Below are positions 25,465 through 61,769 of a DNA stretch of 64,000 nt, piece after piece (position 1 is the first letter of the stretch; every line of letters begins with the position of its first letter). This stretch comes from Podarcis vaucheri (lineage: Eukaryota). A program made the translations under genes and the position numbers. The notes beneath the pieces were generated by a model that saw nothing but the letters and a program-made list of their open reading frames with translations, was not told where the DNA came from and searched no databases. The DNA is taken from assembly GCA_965113315.1 (NCBI GenBank), contig OZ220365.1; one strand, written 5' to 3'.

Positions 25465-28063
25465 TCCCTGTCTGCGTTGTCTGATTATCCTCCACATTTG
25501 CTGCCTAACCGCATGTTATATCCTTCTCCCCTTTTTGGCAGCTCTGGATCACTCCTGATAGACCCATTCCCATCCGTGGCTACCTTGACCCAATCTGGAA
25601 GAGCCCTGATTTGTTCCAAATCATCCCAGTTCTATTCAGTGTTTAGCTGGAGAGGTAGCATTGTTCATACCAATCTGAATACTGGTGACTGGAGCGTATG
25701 ACTGGCAAATTGCTATTGTGCTCATGCCTGGAATGTGGGCTTTGAGGCATCTAGTTGGCCACTATGACAACCAATTGCTGGGACTAGCACTGATCCAAAA
25801 GTGCTCTTCATTTAGTGCCGCTACTATTGTCTCTTCCTAATTCACACATCATACATTACATTGCTCATTTGAGTGAAAAGATGTGGATGTTAAAAGTTGG
25901 TTTTACAAAGCCGAAAGTTGGACAATTGCTATACTGTACCTGTTTCACGCCAGTCCGTAACTGAGTACAAATGACAAAGATCCAGGTTTGCAGGTATAAT
26001 TAGTGAGTGTTGGGGAGGAATCTTCATTCATAAGCAAAGTCAGAGAGGTTCCATATCCAGGACCAATATCACTTTCATTTAGTAGTTCAATGCACACTGT
26101 TGAGCTTCTATAACAGACTCTTTATTTCATCAACTAAGTGGTACAAAAACAAAATACAGAAAATGTTCTGCATGGCTGAAGTTAATCAGAACACGTTGGC
26201 TTCAGTACATTAGACTCCAAATAAAGCACAGAGTCAGGTAAGAAAACTATCAAGAACATGGTCACCATCTGTTTCCAAGCAGCAGTTAAAATCAATGTAG
26301 GGAATCTCATATAACATTGTGCTGGTGCAGAGCTTTTAAAATATCAAGATAGCGTAGTGAAGAGGGATTTTGATGTAAAGCACAAATAGGTTCTGCTATT
26401 ATTTTCTCATTCGACTACATAAATAACAGACATAAGTGTGACTAGGAGTTCCTTAAGCTCAGTCAAAAATAGTTTTTGTTTTAAGTATATGCCATGGGTC
26501 AGTGATGGAGTTCAGTCTAGGGGAGAATTCACAAGCTGATTTATCAGGTTCTGGGCAGTGTTGCAGCCAGCACCATGCAAACACAGAGTGGAGGGTTGAC
26601 CCTGATGTCAGCAGCCTTCTGCATGCCAATACAACCCTACACCTTTCCATTATGCTGTTGCATAGTTTTGTCTGCAGTACCGCCCTCACATTTACGGATG
26701 CATCCCACTAAGCACAAGGTAAGTATTAGGAAGGCTCATTCCGGGTCTGACACCTTGCAACAGCTTTTGAGGGTTTCACCTGCTTCACTGGCTGCCACTA
26801 ATACTGACTACTCTGACTGTCTTCAGTCCAAAGACTCTTCAAGGCTTCAACCTTGCAACTTGAGATACTAAATTTAACCTGGGGACTTTTATCTTTAGAG
26901 CATCATCTCCAAAACTGAGCTAGGTCCTCTCTAGTGGTAATGTCTGGATTGCAAGATTCTAATTCTACAATAATTTGATATGAGACAAGCTTTTCCTCAA
27001 CACCACACCTACCGACCTACAAAATGCATTGAATAATCTGGGTGGCTGTAGGTTGAGATCCAATGTGTGATCTAGATCTGGATTTCTGTTAGCATCACTG
27101 CTTAATATTATTTACTTGAAATAATTGTAATAGATCTTCAGATCTGGGACTCATAAAAATGTAACAGTAATAATTTATATGCTGTTATTTAAAGCAATCG
27201 GTTGTCTTGGGAAGATGATCTTTCATCATTAGACTGTTTACTTGTAGCACTGCTTTTCATAATGATAAATGCAAGCAGCTTCCTTTAGAAAAAAACTTTT
27301 TTAAAAAAAAAACATGTGAAATATCAGTTCTAAAATGCAATCTAGATCACAAATTGGAGAAGTCGCATACCACTTTAACAAATAAAATATTTTCATGAAA
27401 GTCTATCTTTTAATATGTCATCCCACTATAAGACCTCACATTAAAAACAGACTTTAATGTGAAATGATTTCATTTATAAAAGTGGTGTTAATTCAAAAAA
27501 ATGTCACCATGATATCAAACCCCATACTGATTAATGCTGGAGATGATACCTCAAAAATTCAAGACACTCAGACTGCTGAGGGCAGAATTATATAATTTGT
27601 CACCTGAGGGTGCAGCTGACATTTCAGGTACCGAATAAATGCTCAAGGGAAATAGAGAATGACGGGTTTGTGAATCCCTATCATATCAAGGAATTTCATT
27701 TTGCATTGCAGGTTTTGTAGTTTTAAGAATGCATGGGAGTTGTAGTTCAACACATTACCCACCTCTGTCTTAGACAACCACTAAATTGACAAATGGTTTG
27801 ACTCAGCTTCGTATGCTATTTGTTAGAAACAAACTAGCACATGGAGTACCTGCTTTTAGCTGATTTCTCCTTAAGCTATGTGAATTTATCAACGCCGAAC
27901 ACTGACAAAGCGTGTTCTCCCTAGCAGAGAGCACGTGTTGCGGTTGGGAACAGGCCACCCTCCTGTGACTAGGCAAATTTAGTTCAATCATGGCCACTTA
28001 AAGGGTTAAATTGGGTTGCTGGGGTGTTTTGAGTGTTACTTTTTTGGAGGAGGGGTCAGAGTC

Positions 28064-28071
28064 TATATATA
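28064..28071 (+). promoter_or_regulatory. Putative TATA box of the YR element internal promoter
   Basis: TATATATA about 130 bp inside the inferred 5' end, preceded by CAATCA (about 27985) and followed by a pyrimidine-rich tract and a CpG island. Confidence 0.5.
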
Positions 28072-28424
28072 CAGGGACCCAACTTTGGCACGGCCTCTTG
28101 GCCGTTTTCCTCGGATCAAGGAGCTCAAAGACGGTTGTATTTGAACCTACCTGAATTCTTAATTCTCGCCCTTATTTCCCCCTTTTACTTCTTTACCTTT
28201 CCCATCTCCTCCCATATTCTCTTACTCTCTCTTCTCCTACTGTTTCCCTTCTTATTCTATTGGTCTGTTTCCTTTCTAGTTTGCTCCTTTCCTTACTGTT
28301 TAACTCAGCCCTGGTTATAATTAGAAGGCTGAGGGTGGGCACCCCCCCCCCGGCCTGGGGTAGGCCTGGGAGGGCAGGCTTGCGGCCGCTTTGGCCCACT
28401 GGAACACCCCCTCCCCGATCGCTA

Positions 28425-29030
28425 GTGCCGCGGCTGCGGATCGCGGCCGTTTCCTCGCCCCGTCTCCACCCCCGCCTCGCGGTTTAGGCCTAGTAACGGC
28501 CTAGAGGTCGGCCTCCCGCCGGTGGGGCGCCACCGGACCGCGGACTCGCCGCGCTTTTCCCTGGGCCTGGGATCGCGGCCTCCCGGCTGCCGGGCCCTTC
28601 CGGGCTGCTTTTTCCCCCGACCTTGCTGGTCCGCTGGGGAGCTTCCGAGCGCCCGGCCCGGCTCCGTCGGGCGAGGCGCGGTGAGTGGCCTTGCTCCTGC
28701 TCGGCCCCAGGAGCTCGGGGTGTGGCGGAGTTTACGCGGCCGAGGATTGCCGCCGCCTCCTTGCCCCCCCACCCCTACCTGTGTTTAGGCCTAGCGTCGG
28801 CCTAGAGAGCGGTCTCCCACCGGTGGGGCTCCCGACGGGCGGCGGACGCGCCGCGCCTTTCCCCGGTTTGGGGGGTTGTGGCCTCACGGCCGCCGGGCCC
28901 TGCCGGGCTGTTTCCCCCTCCTGACCCTGCTTACCTGCGGGGAGGCTTCGGACCACGCCAGGCCCGGCTCCGTCGGTGCGGCCGCCGCGCTCGGTCCTCC
29001 GCCATTGGTGCGGCGCGCTCCTGCGTGGCC
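28425..29030 (+). repeat. Diverged tandem duplication (about 301-bp period) forming a CpG island in the YR element leader
   Basis: GTTTAGGCCTAG at 28482 and 28783, each followed by matching blocks (CGGCCTAGAG, CCGGTGGGGC, GCCGGGCCCT, GGCCCGGCTCCGTCGG). Confidence 0.8.
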
Positions 29031-29154
29031 CTAGGGGAGTGGTTGGCGCGGCGGAGCTCCCGCTAGCCCCCCTGCGGTTCTGGATCTGAGAGCAGGCCAA
29101 GGCTTCGGTGCAGCCTGCACTGTTGATTTGCCTGCTCTGGCTTCAATTGCTTCC

Positions 29155-29408
29155 TGGCCCTCTAGTGGCCGCCTGGTGTAACTGCAGGCTGCCTGCTCGT
29201 GAGCTCCCCTAGTGGCTCAGAGCAGCACTGCAGCTCTTTAGCTCATTGCTTAGAGCAAATAGAGCCACCTTCTGGCCACCTGAGTATTGCAGCCTGCTGC
29301 AATTTAACTGGTAATAGCTCTATCTAGTGGCTCGACCTGGTATTGCGCTTCATCCCACTGCGCTTAAATTGCTAGTGCCCCTGCAGGACGCAGTGAGGGG
29401 CGCACTGT
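29155..29408 (-). promoter_or_regulatory. Tandem array of 4-5 co-oriented CTCF-like sites (core plus upstream motif)
   Basis: Minus-strand reads: CTGCAGTTACACCAGGCGGCCACTAGAGGGCCA, CTGCAGTGCTGCTCTGAGCCACTAGGGGAGCTC, CTGCAATACTCAGGTGGCCAGAAGGTGGCTC, GCGCAATACCAGGTCGAGCCACTAGATAGAGCTA, and a weaker CCTGCAGGGGCACTA. These match the CTCF consensus CCAC/GYAGRKGGC with a TGCAG/A upstream module. Confidence 0.75.
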
Positions 29409-29653
29409 GTTATAATAATCATTAGAATTACTTAAATTAATTACCTTCCTTGAATTTTATTTCTGTAGTAATTTTAGTTCTTCTAGTAGTGGTTAGTCAA
29501 GGGTTCCTAAAGTGTTTTGGCTCACTAGTAGGTACTTTCCAGTGCTCCAGGGTTAAAGGCCTTTGGCCATTCTTGGTTTCCTTTATCCAAAGCTAACAGT
29601 CTGCTCGGGTTTATTGATACAGGCCTTCTTTATCCTTTGTTTAACTAGCAGGT

Positions 29654-31192
29654 ATGGCTCCAAAGAAAGCTTCAACCCGCGCTGGCACATCTGTTTCTAC
29701 AAAACGGCCTATTAAGGGGCCATCTCAAGCGCTCCGCTCTTCGGCTCCGAGACAACCAGTGGGGCGGATCCAGTCCTTGGTGGCAAGCATGGCCGGTGAT
29801 CCTGAAGCCTTGTCTCGCTTCGCAGCGGACATGGACGGTTTCCTGCAACAATGCTCCAGTCAGCCTTCCACGTCTGCACGGCCGCCTCGTCCAGTGAGGG
29901 TGTCGTCACCGGTGTCGTCTGCCTCTAGCGAGGATGGGAGAGAAGGGTTGTCAGCTGGGGGTGGCAGGGTTGATTCCCAATTAACCCAGCCTTGTTACTC
30001 ACCTGCAGTTCGCGGCCTTCCACGGAGGACAAGTCGCTCTTCCAGGAGGGCACCAGGGGGGAGGAATCCTCCGGCATCTACCAGCCGCAGGGGCAGGAGC
30101 GCCCACCCTCCCGCCGAGGTGGCGTCTGGTTCTGGCCTTTCACTCCTTGTCTCTTCTCCATCAGTCCCAGATTCAGCGCAGGATCCAGGTGCCTCTCAGC
30201 CAAATTCTGACTCGGCCTCTTCTATGGAAGATAGCTTACCAGTCCCGGCTAAGAGATCATTGGGGGGGAAGCGTCACCGCAGAAGATCTTCCCGGAAGCG
30301 TGCCAGACGTAGGAGGGCGGATTCTTCTTCATCTTATACGGGTACGTCATCTAGCTCTGACGATGAGGCTGGTAAATCAATGGAACTTTATTGGGGTTTC
30401 GGTGAGACGGCTTCTGGGCTCCCGAGGTGGGCCTGGGAACGGCGCGCCAATACGCACCGTGCTAGGTATGGTGCAGTACAAGAGTGCAGGGATGGTGTGT
30501 TGGTACCTGACACTAAGGTCTCTACCAATTCAGCCAGGGACATTATTCCTGGTTCACACTTGGCTACGAAGCTTCGGTCTAGGATATTGAATGGCCGTTA
30601 CGTAGACATTTTTAAGTTGGCCCCACCTTCGGAAGATTAAGAGAAGGGGCCTTCTTCCAAGAAGCGCCAGGGCGCTGCCACTTCAGACAGAACATTCGAA
30701 CTTTGGCTCGACTGTTTTCAAGTCTTCGCTGGTGTTGTTGTGGCAGCCTATCCTCGGAGGTCTCTTCACTTGTTTGTTTACCTATCCATTGTTCGTTCTG
30801 CTTTCACCAAAGCTGGTGAACGGGCTGCGATCAAATACGATGAAAATTTCAGGCGCCGAGCGGCCAAGATTCCCACGGCCCGTTGGGATCGTAGGGATCT
30901 CGATGTTTGGACCACCCACGTGGCCCCTTTCATTGATAAGAAAGCGCCAGAACAGCAGAAATCTAAGCCGGCAGCCTTTAGGTCTGGTCGCAGGCTTATA
31001 TGCTGGGACTTTAACAAGGGCTCCTGTCAGCGACAGGGGTGCAGATATGCCCATGTCTGTGAAAAGTGCAATGGTTCGCATGCTGCCTCCTCTTGTTTTA
31101 GTGGTCGCCGGCCCTTTCGAGGGGGCAGAGGGGGTTCTCAGCAAAGCCACAAACCAACCCCCTCCCCTGCAACTTCAGCTGCAGGGAAATGA
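29654..31192 (+). pseudogene. YR-retrotransposon ORF1 (Gag-like, about 512 codons, C-terminal Cys/His zinc finger) with one premature stop
   Basis: ORFs 29654..30640 and 30740..31192 are in the same frame, separated only by TAA at 30638-30640 (..PPSED*EKGPSSKKR..). Ser/Arg/Pro-rich N-terminus. C-terminal CWDFNKGSCQRQGCRYAHVCEKCNGSHAASSC finger, as seen in ORF1 of DIRS-order elements. Confidence 0.8.
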
Positions 31193-32798
31193 CACACTGA
31201 CCTCCTTGGCGTACACTCCTGTTCGCCTACAGCCCCTGCAGTTATGGCTGCAGTCTTACCCTAATAGGGAGGCTGCGGCCTATTTGTTCAATGGTTTTTC
31301 TGTGGGTTTTCGGATTCCTGTAGCCATGCCTCCCATGGCACAGAATCCTGCTAATCAAAAGTCAATTCGCGAGCTGCCTCAGGTCGCTCGCAAGAAGATA
31401 GCGAAGGAAGTGGCCATGCAGTGCATGGCTGGCCCCTTTGATAGACCTCCCTTTCATAATTTGCATGTATCCCCATTGGGTATCGTGCCTAAAAAGGCCC
31501 CTGGTGAATTTCGTTTAATTCATAATTTGTCACATCCCACAGGCACGTCAGTCAATGACGTTATTCCTCCAGAGCTATGCTCCGTAAGGTATGCTTCTCT
31601 TGATCAAGCGATCAAGATGATTAGGAAGTTCGGCCATGCAGCATTATTGGCGAAACGCGATATTGAATCAGCCTTTCGCCTTTTGCCAATTCACCCAGAG
31701 GACTTTTGGCTGCTTGGCTTTCAGTTTGAGGGCAGCTATTACTTTGACAAGGCCATGCCTATGGGATGTTCCGTGGCATGTGCCGCCTTTGAGGCATTTA
31801 GTACCTTTTTGGAGTGGGCCCTAAAATTTAAAACAGGTTTGGGCGGAGTCACTCGTTATTTGGATGATTTTTTATTGGCCTCGGCGAGCGATTCTGGCGA
31901 GTGCGCAATGTTGCTGCAGGCCTTTGCTGACATTACGCAGGAACTGGGAGTTCCGCTTGCAGCCGACAAGACGGAGGGTCCTTCCACCCAGCTCACTTAC
32001 TTGGGTATCCTATTGGATACTGTGGCTCAAACTTCCAGCTTGCCAGAGGACAAGTTGGTTGCTTTGAGGAGGATCATTGAGGACCTACTTCCTCTGAAAA
32101 AGGTGTCTCTCAGGCAGCTCCAGTCACTTTTGGGACACCTGAATTTCGCCTGTAGAGTGGTGGCCCCCGGGCGCCCCTTCTGTTCACGCTTGGCGCGCCT
32201 CACTGTAGGGTTGAAGGCTCCGCATCATCGGGTTCGCCTCTCTAGTGAGGTGCGAGCGGATCTTCGGATCTGGCTTGAATTCCTGAAGGAATTCAATGGG
32301 GTGTCCTTATGGCAGGACACTTTGAACCTGCATAATGACTTCCAGGTGCATTCCGATGCGGCAGGCTCCTTGGGTTTCGGCCTATATTGGAAGGGTCGAT
32401 GGTGCGCTCAGCGTTGGCCGGCTGAGTGGCAGGGAAGTGAGATTACGCGGGATCTAACTTTTCTCGAGTTTTTTCCAATTGCAGTGGCAGTACATTTGTG
32501 GGTCGAGGAGTTCAGGAACCGCCGTGTCTGCTTCTGGACCGATAACCAGGCGGTGGTGAATGTGTTGGCCAAGCTTTCATCTCGCTCGCCCAGGGTGTCT
32601 GCCCTTTTGCGAGCATTTGTGCTGCATTGCTTACGTTGTAATATAGTTTTTTCTGCACGTTTTATTCCCGGGGTGTCAAATGAAATTGCTGATGCTCTGT
32701 CCCGTTTTCAGATGGAGCGGTTCAGACTTCTGGTTCCAGAGGCGCGGATACGTCCGGAATATTTCCCGGATCATCTCTGGAACCTTGGCAGCAATTAG
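30732..32798 (+). CDS. Reverse transcriptase-RNase H of DIRS/Ngaro-type retrotransposon (real start probably about 31100-31190; overlaps ORF1 in another frame)
   Basis: Uninterrupted frame. RT motifs SPLGIVPKK, FRLIHNLS, KRDIESAFRLLPIHP, MPMGC and YLDDFL. RNase H motifs SDAAGSLGFG, LEFFPI, TDNQAVV and NEIADALSR. Confidence 0.93.
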   Translation: MLLWQPILGGLFTCLFTYPLFVLLSPKLVNGLRSNTMKISGAERPRFPRPVGIVGISMFGPPTWPLSLIRKRQNSRNLSRQPLGLVAGLYAGTLTRAPVSDRGADMPMSVKSAMVRMLPPLVLVVAGPFEGAEGVLSKATNQPPPLQLQLQGNDTLTSLAYTPVRLQPLQLWLQSYPNREAAAYLFNGFSVGFRIPVAMPPMAQNPANQKSIRELPQVARKKIAKEVAMQCMAGPFDRPPFHNLHVSPLGIVPKKAPGEFRLIHNLSHPTGTSVNDVIPPELCSVRYASLDQAIKMIRKFGHAALLAKRDIESAFRLLPIHPEDFWLLGFQFEGSYYFDKAMPMGCSVACAAFEAFSTFLEWALKFKTGLGGVTRYLDDFLLASASDSGECAMLLQAFADITQELGVPLAADKTEGPSTQLTYLGILLDTVAQTSSLPEDKLVALRRIIEDLLPLKKVSLRQLQSLLGHLNFACRVVAPGRPFCSRLARLTVGLKAPHHRVRLSSEVRADLRIWLEFLKEFNGVSLWQDTLNLHNDFQVHSDAAGSLGFGLYWKGRWCAQRWPAEWQGSEITRDLTFLEFFPIAVAVHLWVEEFRNRRVCFWTDNQAVVNVLAKLSSRSPRVSALLRAFVLHCLRCNIVFSARFIPGVSNEIADALSRFQMERFRLLVPEARIRPEYFPDHLWNLGSN

Positions 32799-33682
32799 TC
32801 CTTCAGGGAGTAGCGGCATCGGTTTCCCCTTCTACCTTGAGATCTTATAGTAAAGCATGGGCCGATTTTCAGGCATTTGTACAACAGTCAGCTAGGTTAC
32901 TAGTTGGGGTCCCCCCCACCTCTTCGCAGGTGCTACAATATTTAGCCCATTTATTTCAGCTAGGGCGTGCGGGTAGGACACTTAGGATGCAGGCAGCTGC
33001 TATATCATTTTTCTGTAAGACACATTTTGATACCGATCCTTGTGCAAAATTTGTTGTTTGCAGAGCCCTAGAGGGTTGGGGCCGTCTATGTCCTTCTCAG
33101 CCGACAAACCGACGCCCCATCTCGTTTGAATTATTGAGCAAGATGCGCAAAAGTCTGAGGGTGGTGTGTTGGTCTACCTATGAGGCTCGCCTTTTCGCGG
33201 CTGCCTTTTCAATCGCCTTCTTTGGAGCTTTGAGAGTAGGTGAATTGGTAGTGGAAGACCACCGGGATGGTCGTTCCAGGGGCCTTCTGCTCCAGGATGT
33301 GCAATTATCCCCTGCTGAACTGAGAATTACGATTCGGTATTCAAAGACGGATCAGAGGGGCAAGGGCGCTCTCATTTGTCTTCCTGCCACTGGGGCGGCA
33401 GGCCCTTGCCCAGTAAAGGATGTTAATAAGTATCTAGCGGTGCGAGCGCACGGGGATGGGCCGCTGCTTCGGCACGAGAATGGGTCACCCCTTACAAGGC
33501 ACCAGTTCGCAGGGGTGATGCGTAAAGCTATCCTGGCCTGTGGTGGCGTGGCCACAGATTTTGCCCCCCATTCCTTCAGGATAGGGGCTGCCACGACTGC
33601 AGCTCATTGGGGTTTGTCAGCTGCTAGAATTCAGGATTTGGGGCGTTGGAGGTCAAATGCGTTCAAGGGATATGTTCGTTAA
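32714..33682 (+). CDS. Tyrosine recombinase (phage-integrase family) of the retrotransposon
   Basis: Catalytic motifs FGALRVGEL (R), SKTDQ (K), HSFRIGAAT (H-x-x-R), GRW and KGYVR (Y). The frame is open from 32693 and overlaps the RT C-terminus. There is no ATG before the domain (the ORF track starts at TTG 32837). The start given is the first full codon after the putative acceptor at 32711. Confidence 0.92.
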   Translation, partial: GAVQTSGSRGADTSGIFPGSSLEPWQQLVLQGVAASVSPSTLRSYSKAWADFQAFVQQSARLLVGVPPTSSQVLQYLAHLFQLGRAGRTLRMQAAAISFFCKTHFDTDPCAKFVVCRALEGWGRLCPSQPTNRRPISFELLSKMRKSLRVVCWSTYEARLFAAAFSIAFFGALRVGELVVEDHRDGRSRGLLLQDVQLSPAELRITIRYSKTDQRGKGALICLPATGAAGPCPVKDVNKYLAVRAHGDGPLLRHENGSPLTRHQFAGVMRKAILACGGVATDFAPHSFRIGAATTAAHWGLSAARIQDLGRWRSNAFKGYVR

Positions 33683-33725
33683 CAATTTTAGTGTCTGATA
33701 CTGTTTTGGTTTATTTATCCCAGGT

Positions 33726-34298
33726 CTGCCAGCCGTACGCGTCTGGATGGTGGGCCACAGCATCATCCATTGGGCTGGTGTCGCAGCACGGCAGTCCGGA
33801 TTGGGTCCAGGTCTCGGCCTTCCTTCACACGTTCGGGTGTCCTGGCTGTCCAGATGAGGAATGCGGTGGTCGGAGTTTTTGCCACGAATTCGAAGGCAGT
33901 TGCTCTTGGAAGGGCCGCCAGAGGCTATTGTGGTGCAGCTGGGAGAGAATGACCTGGTTGCCATGGACTGCTTATCATTACGTGCTGCAATTTTGGCTGA
34001 CCTGGAGACGCTGCGGGCAATGGTGCCCACAGCCAAGTTATTTTGGTCTAAGCTTTTGCAACGACGCGTTTGGTTGGGAAGTCGTTGCCCGGTTGCCACA
34101 GAAAGGGCCAGGAAACGCATCAATGCAGCAGTTTCCAAAAGGATTGTGGAACTGGGTGGAGAGGTGATCTTTCACCATGAAATCTCCTATCCTGCGGCAG
34201 CTCTCTTTAGGGCCGATGGAGTGCACCTTTCTGCTTCTGGGAATGAGGTTTGGCTAGGTGCGGTGGTGGCCAAGCTGAGGTCTTGGCTGGGGTTGTGA
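33726..34298 (+). pseudogene. SGNH/GDSL hydrolase (esterase) ORF of the retrotransposon, with one premature TGA
   Basis: Block I VWMVGHS (33741-33761), block II RxGMRW, block III QLGENDL and block V DGVHLS. In-frame TGA at 33855-33857, probably CGA>TGA CpG decay. The downstream part is ORF 33861..34298. Confidence 0.85.
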
Positions 34299-34648
34299 GT
34301 GGTTTGGCGGTGAGCTGAGGGCTCTATGGCGGTTAGGTGCTGGTTAAATTGGTGCTTGGAGGGGTAAGTGCCTACCCCTCCAAATGAGGCGAATGGGAAT
34401 TCCGTTAAAGGAAATCCAGGGGCTTGCCATTCTTTTGTCCTTGTCCCCGGAGTCGGACTTGGGCCGTGCAAGCCCCACAGGAACATGAGGGTGAGAAGTA
34501 ATGGTCTGTTTCCCGGCTTTATTTCTCACCCAATACTTGTTTCCCACGCTGGCTTCCGCTGGTGTCCGGAAGGCCAGCCCTGTCCCTGAGGGCAAGGACA
34601 GATAGTCATAACCAGTGCCTAAGCAACCACTCACATTTTTTGTATTTG

Positions 34649-34654
34649 AATAAA
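34649..34654 (+). terminator. Polyadenylation signal of the YR element
   Basis: AATAAA about 95 bp from the inferred 3' end, followed by a GT-rich tract (TGATGTGTGAAGTGTG). Confidence 0.6.
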
Positions 34655-36612
34655 GTTGTGGCCAAAATTATGCCAAAAACCTTAAACAAAAATTGATGTG
34701 TGAAGTGTGAATTATTGGGGGGCTACTGTGACTCAACACGCAACCTAAGAAATGTGTTTTGTTTTTAGCTGGCTGCTTTCAGAATTTAACAGTAGCAGAG
34801 AGTGAATTTTGCTGTAATAATTGTATAAAGATTTGCTTCCCTTTATATAAAAAAATCCAAATTGATAAAATGGTTTGCCAACTCCATGTCCTCTTTATAA
34901 TTAAAACCAAATCATTAACTCAGTTGGGCATCACTGCTCATGTGTGAAGGAACACTCTGGAACACACAGGGATATTGCAAACCTAATTGTTTTTGACACT
35001 GACAATATTATTAAAGGTCCCCTTTGGATTGTCAGGTAATGTTACAGTCATTTGAGTTCTACACATTTAAGTACCTGATGAAAAAGTAAGATTCGTCATT
35101 TACCATAAAAGGAGCAGAGCTTCTTCTTCTTTTTCGTAGGCCCAAAATTCAGAGCGCAAAGAGTATTTAAAAACACACTTGCATTTGCTGGCCTTTGAGA
35201 AAAATTCAAATGCTTTGAAGCTTCCAGATTCACTCTTTGGTTCAAAACCTTTGGGAAGTGTGCCTGAATATTTTCAACAACATTTCTGCTCGGGTTAATG
35301 CAGGAATCATTGCAGCCATGTTTTAAATGGCTATATTTGCTGGATAATTACCATTCATTTGGCAATAAGCTAGATTCAGCCTGCTTCATAGAGTGCTGCA
35401 GTTTTATTTAATAATTTAAGCCACATTTCTGTTTGTTCAGTACCAGCTCAAAATACTTTGTAATGCTGGCAGTTCTTTGCCTGTTTATAATTTATTTATC
35501 CCATTATTCTTGGATTGCAGACCTAATCGTTCCACTAGGTTTGTTCTTTTGAAATAACTAGCAATACATTTATGTTTATGGATGATATACGTAGGCTATA
35601 TTTATCATGCCGCTTCTGATTTGACATGCTGCTTGGGCTATCAAAGATTATCTGAGGAACTTGATGCACCGTACTGAAGGTGTTAAGATAGGTTTAAGGT
35701 GCTATTTTAAGGAAATATAAATTGCTTGGGAAGAGCCATTCATTCTTCTTTAACTTGAGGTAGATTTGTGAAGCCATTTGATGACCTGACTGTGAGTTCC
35801 TTTCCTTCTGCATTTTCCTATGTGCTGTAGGGTTGCACAATTTCATTTAGGAACTTGGTAGCTGTGCTGCGACATGGGAAGGAGGGGAAAGATCCCTCAC
35901 TCACTTCATGCAGATCCTTCGAAGGCCTAGTCCTGAAATGCATACCATTTGAATGGCAATGTCCATCAACTGTGGGGGGCCCTAGCCCCTAAAATATTTT
36001 ATTGGGGGGCTGAAAGGACCTTAGCCCCTAGGAGTTGGCTCCTATGGTGCACTGCTTAGGGTGACCTGCTTACACATCACCAAAACAGAACACCAGAAAA
36101 AGAGACTGCAGATTTTCAATTTAGATGAATAGGTGCCAATTTAGAAATGATGGATTGTATCCAACTATGTTTTCTTCAGAGTAGACCCACAGGACATGAA
36201 CAGACCCAAATTAGTTATGTCCACTAATTTCAGTGGGTCTGTTCTGAATATGACTAATGCTGGATACAACCTAGTTACAGCACCATAATTTTAACAGAAA
36301 TGCAAGACATCTGCAGCTACAAAAGCTGAGGCTGCTGAACAAAATATTGGACAGGGGTCTGCCAAGGGGCATTATTGCTGTTAATTTTTTTGGATCTTAC
36401 AATTTATGTGGAAATTGTTCTATTTGGTTGGGTACTTTTTGAAATTCTGTTTATTGTTTATGACTACTTTTGTTACGTTTCTAGTCGTGTATTTTTTTTA
36501 AGTTGTAAGCTGCATTGGACATTATTTTAACTTTAGAAAGACAGTATACAAATAAAATGACTGATTGACTGATTGATTGGTCTCACCATAGTGGGAAAGG
36601 CTATGACCGAGT

Positions 36613-58570: not shown

Positions 58571-59105
58571 GCTGTCCATCGGACATCTGGATGAGAGGTT
58601 GGTGAATTGTCCTCCTCTGCTTCCATGGAAGCCTGAAGTGAGAGGCTGATTCTCTGCAGCCAGAAGCTGACCAGAAGAAGCTGACAGCCAAGCAGATACT
58701 CAAGGTACGAGACTTTTAAGGGCTTAAAAGAGTGAATGCAGAATGATTCATTCTCTGCTTCACGGAAAGCGAGTGTGGGAAAGCAGCTCCAACTTAGAAG
58801 AGGACTGCATTCCAGGCATTCTTGTGGTTTCCTGCTCAAGGAAAGGAATGCGCTGTTGCCTAGCAACGTCCTTCAGAAGGCTGTGCCTCAGAGAGGAGAA
58901 ATGGAAAGTTACTCGGAGGGCTGGACAGTCAGACTATGCTTCAGAGAGGCGAAAACAAAGTTTTGTTATGACTAGGTCCTCACGAACTGCTGGAAGGGAC
59001 TTTCCAACGCAGCCAGTGTCAGAGTTGCCAGGTGTCAAGAGTGTAAACAAGCCAGCTATTGGATTTTAGAGGCTTGTGTTTTTAGAGTCACTGCAAGGAC
59101 TCAAA

Positions 59106-61769
59106 ATGGATGCCAAGAAGGGGGGAGGCTTGCCTTCTCCACCCCTCCTGACCAATGACAATTATTCATCTTGGTCTGTAAAGATGAAGGCCCTGCTGCA
59201 GAATCAGAGACTGTTTGGGGAGATTGAGAATCCCATCCCTGCAGCACCAACGCGTGCTTGGGAGTCACAGAATGTGAAGGCTAGGACTGCTATAATTCTG
59301 TGTGTGTCAGACTCGCAGCTTGTGCATATACAGCATTTGGAATTTGCGCAAGAGGTTTGGAACACGCTGCGTACAACGCATCAGAGAGATGCTGGTTCTT
59401 CAGCGTTGCTGTATTTTGAGAAGTTGACCAATCTGAGATTAGCGCCTGATGGAGATGTTCAAGCGCACCTGACAGAGATGAAGTTCCTGCGTCAACAAAT
59501 GGTGGAACGCAATTTCCGTCTACAGGAGGAAGTGTTTTGCTTCATGATAATAAACAGCCTAAACCGGACCTACAAGGTTGTTGCCAGTCAGCTTGGTTCG
59601 CTACCTGCTCAGCAGCTAACCGCGGAAAGGGTCTGTGCCGTCGTCCTGAACGAACACGACAGACTTGCTGCACTGGAAGTGAAAGACAGAAGGAGGCAAG
59701 AACAGAGTTCAAATCTTCCCACTGATGGTGCTACTGGAGAGCATGCCATAGCATTGAGTGCCGTCCGATGCCACAATTGTGGACAGACTGGGCATCTACA
59801 GCGAAATTGTAGGAAGCCGCGACAGTCAAGAGGAGCCAAGAACAGCTCAACGAAGCCTGAGGCGTCAAGCAAAAGCCGTACCAAGTGCCAGGTGAATCCT
59901 GCAAAGGCTATGATGGCGAAAGGAACCACGCCAGATGTTGGGAACGCATTCATAATCGATACCGACGCCACGAAGCATCTCTGCCCACACAGAGAACTGT
60001 TTTCGACGTTGAAGAAGCAAAGCTTCACTGTGAAACAAGCCAACGGTCAAGAACTGGAAGCGACCGGAATTGGAACTGTGTATCTTGAAAGTCTGAACTT
60101 GACTATAAGCGATGTTTACCTGGTTCCAGAACTGAAATTTAGTCTGCTGAGTGCTTCGCAGATTGCAAAGAAGGGACTAAAACTGTACTATGATGCTAAA
60201 AGATGCAAGATCTACAAAGATGGAGAACTGTTTCTTACTGCTAAAGAGAAAGATGGACTGTATTTGTTGACTTTTGATCAAAGTGATTACATGAAATGTA
60301 ATACTTCTGATTCTAACGAAATTTCTCTTGCAGGTGTGACCAGTGTGAACACCAGGAAGGTGTCCAAGAAGGTCCACAGAGCTTTTCAGCGGGTGTATGC
60401 TGATGTGATCGGTCCTTTAGAACCATCTAGAGGCGGTGCAAAATATTACCTTGTGTGTGTTGATTGTTACACAAATTATTCTTGGGTTTATATGATGAAG
60501 AAACCGCAGGAAACTTTAGAAAAGTTTCAGGAGTTTTGTGACAAGGTTAAAAGTATGCATGATGCTAACATTGATTGTCTTTTCACAGATGAGAAGCCAG
60601 TTTTTCTTTTACAGGATTTCCAGAGGTTCCTGGATGAGAAAGGGATAAGACACAAACTTGCCACTTCCGAAGAAGCATGGAAGAAATGTGTCTGTGTTAG
60701 GGTGAACAAAGAATTGCAAAAGGGGATGCATGCGCAATTGCTAAGTTCACATTTGCCACATGATTATTGGGCTGAATCTTTAGCGTCCTATCTTCATGTG
60801 TGGTTGAGGAAAGTCTCAACAGAGTTGGGATGTTCTCCTTTTGAGAAGCTGTTTAATAGAAAACCTTCTGTTGCCTATTTTAAGGTTTTCGGGTCTCATG
60901 TGAGAACAGAAACTCCAAGTGGGGTAAAGAATGCCAGAGGCATCTTTGTAGGTTATGAAAAAGGTCTCTACAGAGTAATTTTGTCTGAATCTGGTCAGGT
61001 GATTCTCACAAAGTTTCTAGAGAGTGCTCCTGAACGGGAAAGAGTGATTGTTCAAACTTTTTCCACAGATGATTCTGATGATGATGATGATGATGATGAG
61101 TTTGATCTTATTGAGTTCAGTGGTACTGATGATGAAGACACTGATAGCTCAGACAGCTCAGTTGTCACAGTCATTGAGAGGAAATCTCAAATGATGACTA
61201 GACCCTCAGAAGAGGAAGATAAACCACAGATTAAGCTTAGTACTGGTTCTCCAAAGAGTTCAGAGGCTGAACCAGAAAGCAGAGAAGAGCAGCAGCTCTT
61301 ACGAAGGTCTGAGAGAGCAACGAAGGGTATACCACCCAAGAGGTATTCAGAGGAGTTTGCTAACCTAGCATATGTTGCTGTTGTAAACGATCAAGGACAG
61401 ATTGAAGCAGTGTCTAAGTCAGAGACAAAGGCACAACAGAGAGTTGTTAACCAAGGAAATGCTAAGTCACACAACCAGAGAGGTACATTGGTGAAACCAG
61501 TGGCGGGTAGTTCCAAGGGTGGAACTGAAACAACAGGGGAATGTTATAAGTATAACAACTGTTTGTTTTCTTCTCTGGATGACGCTTTGCTCGCAGCACG
61601 CATTGATACTTTAGGGGGAGTATGTTACCATAAAGCACCAATGCAGCAGCAAGCAAAGGCTTCAGCAGCTCAGTCAGCTGCTTGTGGCTGGAAAGCCAAA
61701 CAGGATGTTTGTGACTGTTGCCATGGAAACAAAGGGGCAGTCCATTCTGTACTGAGCACCGGATGTTAG
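59106..61769 (+). CDS. Copia Gag-protease-integrase-like polyprotein (887 aa from ATG), lacking RT/RNase H
   Basis: Gag N-terminus LTNDNYSSWSVKMKALL, zinc knuckle CHNCGQTGHLQRNC, protease IIDTDATKHL and GIGTV, GLYLL, integrase core VYADVIGP..VDCYTNYSWVY..FTD..WAE..FKVFGS..GIFVGY, and post-IN LRRSERATKGIPPKRY. The stop codon lies inside the 3' LTR. Confidence 0.9.
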   Translation: MDAKKGGGLPSPPLLTNDNYSSWSVKMKALLQNQRLFGEIENPIPAAPTRAWESQNVKARTAIILCVSDSQLVHIQHLEFAQEVWNTLRTTHQRDAGSSALLYFEKLTNLRLAPDGDVQAHLTEMKFLRQQMVERNFRLQEEVFCFMIINSLNRTYKVVASQLGSLPAQQLTAERVCAVVLNEHDRLAALEVKDRRRQEQSSNLPTDGATGEHAIALSAVRCHNCGQTGHLQRNCRKPRQSRGAKNSSTKPEASSKSRTKCQVNPAKAMMAKGTTPDVGNAFIIDTDATKHLCPHRELFSTLKKQSFTVKQANGQELEATGIGTVYLESLNLTISDVYLVPELKFSLLSASQIAKKGLKLYYDAKRCKIYKDGELFLTAKEKDGLYLLTFDQSDYMKCNTSDSNEISLAGVTSVNTRKVSKKVHRAFQRVYADVIGPLEPSRGGAKYYLVCVDCYTNYSWVYMMKKPQETLEKFQEFCDKVKSMHDANIDCLFTDEKPVFLLQDFQRFLDEKGIRHKLATSEEAWKKCVCVRVNKELQKGMHAQLLSSHLPHDYWAESLASYLHVWLRKVSTELGCSPFEKLFNRKPSVAYFKVFGSHVRTETPSGVKNARGIFVGYEKGLYRVILSESGQVILTKFLESAPERERVIVQTFSTDDSDDDDDDDEFDLIEFSGTDDEDTDSSDSSVVTVIERKSQMMTRPSEEEDKPQIKLSTGSPKSSEAEPESREEQQLLRRSERATKGIPPKRYSEEFANLAYVAVVNDQGQIEAVSKSETKAQQRVVNQGNAKSHNQRGTLVKPVAGSSKGGTETTGECYKYNNCLFSSLDDALLAARIDTLGGVCYHKAPMQQQAKASAAQSAACGWKAKQDVCDCCHGNKGAVHSVLSTGC

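Follow-up and report, generated by a model that had tools for sequence, protein, structure and literature searches.

Here, we describe a retrotransposon in a 64,000 nt window, the whole stretch of DNA that was analyzed, from Podarcis vaucheri (assembly GCA_965113315.1, contig OZ220365.1). The element, a Ngaro-like tyrosine recombinase (YR) retrotransposon, occupies about 27906 to 34740 on the plus strand, and all features given below lie on this strand unless stated otherwise. It carries open reading frames (ORFs) for a Gag-like protein (ORF1), a reverse transcriptase/RNase H (RT/RH), the YR and an SGNH hydrolase (esterase). We estimate a probability of roughly 72% that the 5' part of ORF1 (ORF1N) serves as a shared exon, spliced onto the esterase ORF and likely also onto the recombinase ORF, with the unspliced RNA serving for Gag and as the genome. 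According to this proposal, the first 688 coding bases of ORF1 would form the exon shared by the esterase and, likely, the recombinase. When the donor at 30342 stays unused, Gag of about 510 amino acids (aa) would be made from an RNA that would also be the genome; joining 30342 to 33724, the outcome seen in contigs, gives ORF1N-SGNH (about 420 aa), and joining it to 32712 would give a predicted ORF1N-YR protein (about 550 aa). Both enzymes would then share a helical and arginine-rich tag, possibly targeting them to the Gag particle or to RNA. A preliminary description, made from the sequence alone, had proposed that one upstream exon, possibly the ORF1 N-terminus, is joined alternatively to RT, YR and esterase through acceptors of the same phase.

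The splice onto the esterase was found by aligning five runs of contigs that are RNA by guess, two runs of raw RNA reads, and a run of DNA size (X9). A contig of X21 (study P2) matches positions 30208-30343, continues with 18 other letters, and then matches 33744-33899, the short side being 136 nt long. Because 18 letters is exactly the length of 33726-33743, and GT is common to both sides, the cut extends from the GT at 30342 to the AG at 33723 and preserves the frame. Two contigs of X1 and one contig of X2 (both study P1) depart from the reference at 30343 and continue as the start of SGNH. Altogether, the join between donor 30342 and acceptor 33723 is present in three of the five contig runs, from two studies and in three sequence variants. 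ORF1N is spliced in frame onto the esterase, as seen in these transcript-like contigs of related copies; the junction ending at 33724, for which the preliminary description had recommended a mapping check, was thus found. The two raw-read RNA runs, with 95 and 55 reads and a depth of at most 0.5 at the donor, were uninformative on the SGNH, YR and RT joins. Contig depth rises over SGNH in all five contig runs but was not used, since contig depth cannot rank gene parts.

The sites involved are a phase 1 donor at 30342-30347, used in the junction contigs of X1, X2 and X21, an acceptor at 33700-33723, for which both junction contigs and conservation speak, and an esterase exon at 33724-34298, which by its length yields a 420 aa fusion (in this copy, a stop codon is present at 33855-33857). 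Conservation was assessed with 80 distant loci from metagenomes. Of these, 13 lacked the RT motif and were dropped; the loci were collapsed to 65 clusters. In 13 of 15 distant clusters, the best YAG located no more than 130 nt from the esterase catalytic motif is in phase 1 (p 3e-5). The ATG of the SGNH frame, at 33747, indeed lies inside the first strand of the domain (residues 228-234 in the structure model), and a methionine is found at this position in only 4 of 10 fusions. Among the best 150 of 1345 SGNH matches, the annotation includes N-terminally extended esterases from other lizards, amphibians and a snail, the joins being those of the annotation.

Two further observations concern this exon. 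In one subfamily, 22-23 T-rich letters replace the 57 nt between 33698 and 33756 that include the esterase acceptor and the first strand; this replacement was present in the run of DNA size as well as in the RNA-like runs, and is therefore a DNA variant and not a splice. In addition, an isoform of vestigial-like 4 from a snake (P0192) and the SPRY domain-containing 4 protein of a caecilian (P0296) are each annotated with an esterase exon, which suggests capture by host genes via the same acceptor.

The shared exon, ORF1N, comprises 229 codons plus 1 nt (29654-30341) and is predicted to encode two helices, a Ser/Pro-rich linker and an Arg-rich motif. It is the first part of ORF1 (29654-31192), the product of the unspliced RNA, which encodes a Gag-like protein with a C-terminal CCCH finger and is interrupted in this copy by a stop codon at 30638-30640. 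The codons at the donor encode Gly-Thr/Met-Ser in all 12 full-length ORF1 homologs. Proteins matching ORF1 residues 1-110 (n = 20) fall into 12 full ORF1 proteins of 462-565 aa and 8 ORF1N-SGNH fusions, and unspliced contigs of X4 and X5 run across the donor. The suggestion that the ORF1 N-terminus is the shared exon was borne out, the contig joins using the donor at 30342, the first of the three phase 1 donors that had been listed in ORF1. Of the proposed set of joins to RT, YR and esterase, that to the esterase holds, that to YR is likely, and that to RT at 31101 was not supported.

Splicing of ORF1N onto the recombinase is likely, as judged from codon conservation and gene models. The candidate acceptor (32690-32711) is formed by the Gln codon within ADALSRFQ, a motif of RT, and the YR frame has a stop codon at 32690-32692. 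The exon that follows (32712-33682) has an intact frame and would give a predicted 552 aa fusion with ORF1N. In codon counts with one locus per cluster, Gln at codon 8 of the motif is encoded by CAG in 31 of 31 clusters; clusters with another residue at codon 8 but Gln at codon 10 use CAG for the latter in 9 of 10 cases, in the same phase. Altogether, CAG is used in 40 of 41 distant lineages with Gln at the acceptor, against a background of 400 of 778 (51%) in RT and 33 of 58 at downstream positions within the RT-YR overlap (Fisher p 1e-6 versus the acceptor). The clusters are still related, so that the p values overstate the case. In loci with the CAG, the Arg codon directly before it avoids AG (AGR in 3 of 41, versus 9 of 16 of the other loci). 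That the motif Ser codon is never AGY (0 of 57) was rejected as evidence; this holds in both groups, and the Ser codon families rarely interchange.

The organization of the YR frame and its database matches point in the same direction. As described previously, it lacks an ATG before its domain, the first being at 32987 and inside the domain; in the distant loci, a YR-frame stop lies just upstream in 37 of 40 cases, and there is no ATG before the domain match in 21 of 37 open frames. Among the best 120 of 256 YR matches, 25 carry a non-RT extension of at least 60 aa, 61 have a short N-terminus, and in 30 the match begins too late to tell. Protein P0037 and its 544 aa version P0291 match the ORF1N of the window and have the join at the predicted Thr-Asp-Gly, and the join lies at this Asp-Gly or close to it in gene models from Anolis, Eublepharis and a frog. 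Of the conservation of acceptor position and phase that had been named as a check, the YR CAG and the SGNH phase are kept, whereas the RT AG is not.

Several results weigh against the proposed sharing of ORF1N. Both Gag and esterase of this copy are broken, and the junction contigs belong to subfamilies about 80-92% like it. The runs with junctions are RNA by guess only, come from organism A and lack a silent-stretch control, and the SGNH junction is not among the rows listed for X4 and X5. No YR, RT or ORF1 junction is present among the matches listed, next to which stand 404 + 93 unlisted loose ends and 7 + 3 unlisted joints; contigs of X1 and X2 cross the YR acceptor unbroken, with the proviso that contigs drop rare variants. 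Furthermore, 11 of 52 distant clusters have no YR CAG at either codon, 4 of the best 120 YR matches are fused to RT pieces, which in three cases start about 9 codons upstream, and the gene models are predictions, the RNA support of which is not visible. Lastly, in distant Gag N-termini the best donor is in phase 1 in only 12 of 26 cases, which is no enrichment. The strongest of these distant donors are in phase 1 in 6 of 7 cases, but this is a post-hoc subset and was not counted as evidence.

The preliminary description went further and had the ORF1N exon spliced also to RT, so that one donor would serve three enzymes. With an acceptor at 31101 or a floating acceptor nearby, this extension is doubtful. 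The RT/RH frame (31104-32798; RVT_1, E 1.6e-11) is +1 relative to ORF1, open from 30606, and conserved from about 31212. The proposed acceptor (31080-31101) is in phase 1, would create an in-frame join of 794 aa, and ranks 8th of 213 YAGs. However, it is not conserved at its position: in ORF1, the AG belongs to a Ser codon (AGT), where 10 of 12 close homologs encode Gly or Ala, so that an AG is excluded in these. Contigs of X4 and X5 also cross 31101 unbroken, and no ORF1N-RT protein of 575-2000 aa was found among 914 candidates, in a search that was weak. A splice at 31101 is therefore not supported by the sequence comparisons. The YR acceptor was seen to shift by two codons, so that a floating RT acceptor may be possible.

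Whether the acceptor phase is conserved before RT depends on the layout of the locus. In the overlap layout, to which the window belongs, RT is +1 relative to Gag in 19 of 19 clusters, and the best YAG is in phase 1 in 11 of 19 clusters, not above the controls upstream (25 of 70, p 0.07) and inside RT (36 of 56, p 0.78); with CAG only, the value is 8 of 18. In the spaced layout, in which more than 150 nt separate the end of Gag from RT, the RT frames are distributed 5/4/4 relative to Gag, and the best YAG is in phase 1 in every one of the 13 clusters (p about 1e-5 relative to each of the two controls). A pooled test (27 of 35) was dropped, as the controls traced its signal to the spaced layout and partly to stop-codon bias. 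The sister group with the spaced layout thus probably splices RT, as judged from this phase pattern. Its loci L039, L042, L046, L052, L054, L061, L064, L067, L070, L073 and L080 have a phase 1 acceptor at an almost constant distance (89-119 nt) ahead of the RT start motif, and Gag ends 300-650 nt before RT. The set lacks the YR acceptor CAG, and this group possibly follows the opposite plan, with RT being spliced and YR made in another way.

For RT in the element of the window, our commitment is weak: a Gag-RT fusion generated by a +1 shift on the unspliced RNA comes close to an even chance, a splice to an acceptor of floating position is a serious possibility, and translation from an own start codon is rather unlikely. 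It is also questionable, and at present a tentative generalization, that Ngaro elements across animals would be alternatively spliced genes in which RT, recombinase and esterase each receive a Gag N-terminal exon through a phase 1 join, with the acceptor in the RT Gln codon kept from invertebrates to lizards.

A different explanation accepts splicing only for the esterase; YR would arise from RT by a -1 ribosomal frameshift, the proposal of a 2015 review whose view is quoted in PMC13003380. Indeed, most loci have a YR in the -1 frame that overlaps the RT end, no YR junction is among the matches listed, and frameshifting may apply to the 11 of 52 clusters without the CAG. A canonical -1 frameshift site is a heptamer of the form X XXY YYZ within the overlap. 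Such a slippery heptamer occurs in only 1 of 42 overlaps, and none is present in that of the window, only the canonical form being considered; because of the YR-frame stop just upstream, any frameshift would be confined to a short overlap. In addition, CAG is used in 40 of 41 cases although the YR-frame residue that follows varies, and gene models join ORF1N to YR at the acceptor AG. We regard frameshifting to YR as decidedly improbable for this element and retain splicing of ORF1N onto YR as the likely route. That the joins derive from deletions at the DNA level or from cryptic splicing in decayed copies, with no role for the element, is hardly credible: the runs are RNA by guess, X9 had 7 unlisted joints, and host-gene annotations include esterase exons in some cases (P0192, P0296), but identical GT-AG boundaries occur in three sequence variants from two studies with the frame kept, the acceptor phase is kept in distant lineages, and the join is absent from the 15 joints listed for X9.

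Within this copy, the splice-site pattern was as previously described. The four AGs end at 29651, 31101, 32711 and 33723, each 2 nt ahead of a codon in the respective frame, and the phase 1 donors at 30342, 30372 and 30402 as well as the donor GCG|GTGAGT at 28681 are all in place. The claim that all four acceptors share phase 1 holds for their positions and phases, but for ORF1 the phase has no coding meaning, since there is no ATG between the TATA-like box (28064-28071, a likely promoter) and the ORF1 start codon at 29654. Acceptor strength was ranked over 213 YAGs with a crude score of our own: the site at 29648 ranked 2nd, SGNH 7th, RT 8th and YR 12th. The AG at 29648 is the upstream one of a TAG-CAG pair; 29651 itself scores 0.51 and is outside the top 25. 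A simple pyrimidine filter was passed by 29 of 406 AGs. Measured against chance inside one copy, the pattern is modest and weak evidence, and the case therefore depends on outside data.

The region between the TATA-like box and ORF1 may contain an additional intron. A GC-rich leader without ATG (28429-28976) harbors two copies of a unit about 245 nt long (28429-28670 and 28735-28976, 74% identical) and a candidate donor at 28681-28686 that matches the donor consensus at 7 of 9 positions. A pyrimidine tract and the tandem TAG-CAG form a candidate acceptor in the 5' untranslated region (29625-29651). The only ATGs in 27900-29660 are at 27990, upstream of the TATA-like box, and at 29654; the leader, being devoid of ATG, is excluded as the shared coding exon. 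Ahead of the ORF1 acceptor site, two different T-rich tracts are present in four raw RNA reads (X14) and a contig of X2, which fits a conserved acceptor, while the records look unspliced; every RNA-like record listed for this site was unspliced or uninformative. The proposed splice from 28681 onto the ORF1 acceptor is thus represented by its donor sequence but appears in no joint listed. The leader has little or no cover in the RNA-like runs, which was not used as evidence. The ORF1 acceptor is plausible but unproven, and we slightly favor that it would close a non-coding leader intron. A splice from the leader straight to YR was ruled out; the first ATG would fall in the RT frame and yield 28 residues.

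Three side observations were made in this region. A cluster of motifs resembling the CTCF core consensus lies on the minus strand at 29157-29330, with motifs at 29157, 29204, 29264 and 29319 and an overlapping match at 29168. With 2 mismatches allowed, it contains 5 of the 41 matches of the window and is its densest 300 nt; with 1 mismatch, the window has 2 matches, both in this cluster, versus 4.0 expected. About 15 nt upstream, three of the four spaced motifs are preceded by TGCAG or TGCAA and the fourth by the similar CGCAA; the array is possibly a mobile insulator-like element, judging from these motifs. At 29649-29657, the ORF1 acceptor AG is followed by GTATGG, a 7/9 donor match in phase 1, so that a recursive splice point is conceivable. 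Just past the TATA-like box, at 28140-28310, a long pyrimidine tract contains two strong acceptor-like AGs (28279 and 28308).

The limits of the element were deduced from a contig of X1 that joins both ends and from a step in GC content. This contig links 34740 back to 27906, the B1-A2 junction expected for Ngaro elements. The copy itself has one A end and one B end, with no second A/B pair and no terminal repeat inside; the split direct repeats A1...B1-A2-B2 are absent from it, the 34740-to-27906 joint being found in one X1 contig. CAA forms the first three bases of the element and recurs directly after its last base (27903-27908 and 34738-34743), so that 3 letters at the B-to-A joint can be assigned to either side, as a recombinase crossover might leave them. 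A likely poly(A) signal, AATAAA, is present at 34649-34654.

Pfam recognized the gag-like ORF (CCCH finger, E 3e-4), RT (RVT_1, E 1.6e-11), YR (Phage_integrase, E 8e-5) and, after YR, the hydrolase (Lipase_GDSL_2, E 2.3e-5), which also has an SGNH fold. Its Ser, Asn-Asp and Asp-Gly-x-His are at least 90% conserved across 50 sequences. RNase H had no Pfam match and was assigned from motifs by eye. The RT frame stops 28 codons past the ADALSRFQ motif, and a methyltransferase domain after RT/RH was not found by Pfam up to E 0.1. Membership in the DIRS1-like group, with its inverted terminal repeats, internal complementary region and methyltransferase, was rejected. From its sequence features, we assign the element to the hydrolase-bearing subgroup of Ngaro-like tyrosine recombinase retrotransposons. 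The RT and YR frames of this copy are intact. Its nearest named relatives are in lacertid lizards, the closest named proteins being from Podarcis, and 12 pattern matches in viral contigs included no relative. Elsewhere in the window, at 59070-61769, there is an 899 aa ORF for a Copia-type gag-protease-integrase, the length of which is unusual in a vertebrate.

A structure model of the natural ORF1N-SGNH protein P0004 shows two N-terminal helices (35-45 and 50-69), a long low-confidence linker with an Arg-rich end, and then the SGNH domain, the first strand of which begins 4 residues past the junction. A sequence search of the PDB with P0004 returned no match. In a fold search, the esterase of ZfL2-1 (4C1B) ranked 5th (E 7.7e-7); many bacterial SGNH folds scored alike, so that no special kinship with this esterase is implied.

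For the overlapping, ATG-less downstream ORFs of such elements, the view quoted in 2026 is that YR is probably made by frameshifting, and the hydrolase has no known function. The results name likely real proteins with exact junctions, ORF1N-SGNH and ORF1N-YR, that can therefore be expressed and assayed, and they imply that ORF-based annotation of such elements yields truncated proteins. The element would have to balance spliced and unspliced RNA. The YR splice, if true, would replace the ribosomal frameshift assumed so far for the recombinase, and a universal Gag N-terminal leader, if true, would equip every enzyme with the same particle- or RNA-targeting tag. Our literature search retrieved no report of splicing in Ngaro elements, with three key reviews, supplements and Repbase entries lying outside it; likewise, the accessible parts of PMC3783388, PMC6681497, PMC7192593, PMC9341512, PMC13465315 and PMC2632668 contain no description of splicing of Ngaro ORFs.

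The closest described counterparts are DIRS-53_XT and DIRS-54_XT of Xenopus, which are Ngaro-like, bear a hydrolase of unproven function, and have four overlapping ORFs, according to the available text of PMC9210276, in which 'intron' and 'splic' have no match. Like these, the element lacks a methyltransferase, has its ORFs in the order Gag-like, RT/RH, YR, SGNH, and belongs to a family with a B-to-A junction; DIRS-54_XT is also described there as lacking split direct repeats. Unlike in that description, the hydrolase is here a spliced exon fused to the ORF1 N-terminus; a further difference is that a second A/B pair is missing from this copy. As in the newt Ngaro-like element Bou1 (PMC13003380, in part), YR overlaps the end of RT in the -1 frame. 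For Bou1, frameshifting was proposed in line with the 2015 review of Poulter and Butler, which PMC13003380 quotes, second-hand to us, as favoring this mode for YR, whereas a conserved candidate acceptor and no slippery site are found here.

Two more distant systems offer comparisons of how such proteins may work. In the non-LTR (non-long terminal repeat) element ZfL2-1, the ORF1 protein has an esterase architecture (PDB 4C1B; accessible part of PMC3905857), and the spliced product would have a helical N-terminus, an Arg-rich motif and an SGNH domain in a similar order, which hints at a common role. In elements of the ZfL2-1 type, which are long interspersed nuclear elements, a single ORF encodes a coiled coil, the Arg-rich motif and the SGNH domain, whereas here the product, with its two predicted helices, is assembled by splicing in a YR element; the protein was therefore not counted among the ZfL2-1-type esterase ORF1 proteins, and the comparison extends only to how it may work. 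In Arabidopsis EVD, a plant Ty1/Copia element with alternative splicing (PMC5580714, as far as its text was accessible), the spliceosome sets the protein ratio and unspliced genome RNA is kept, as would be the case here. However, in EVD it is the spliced RNA that makes Gag, whereas in the present element Gag would come from the unspliced RNA, and splicing would add a Gag N-terminal tag to the downstream enzymes.

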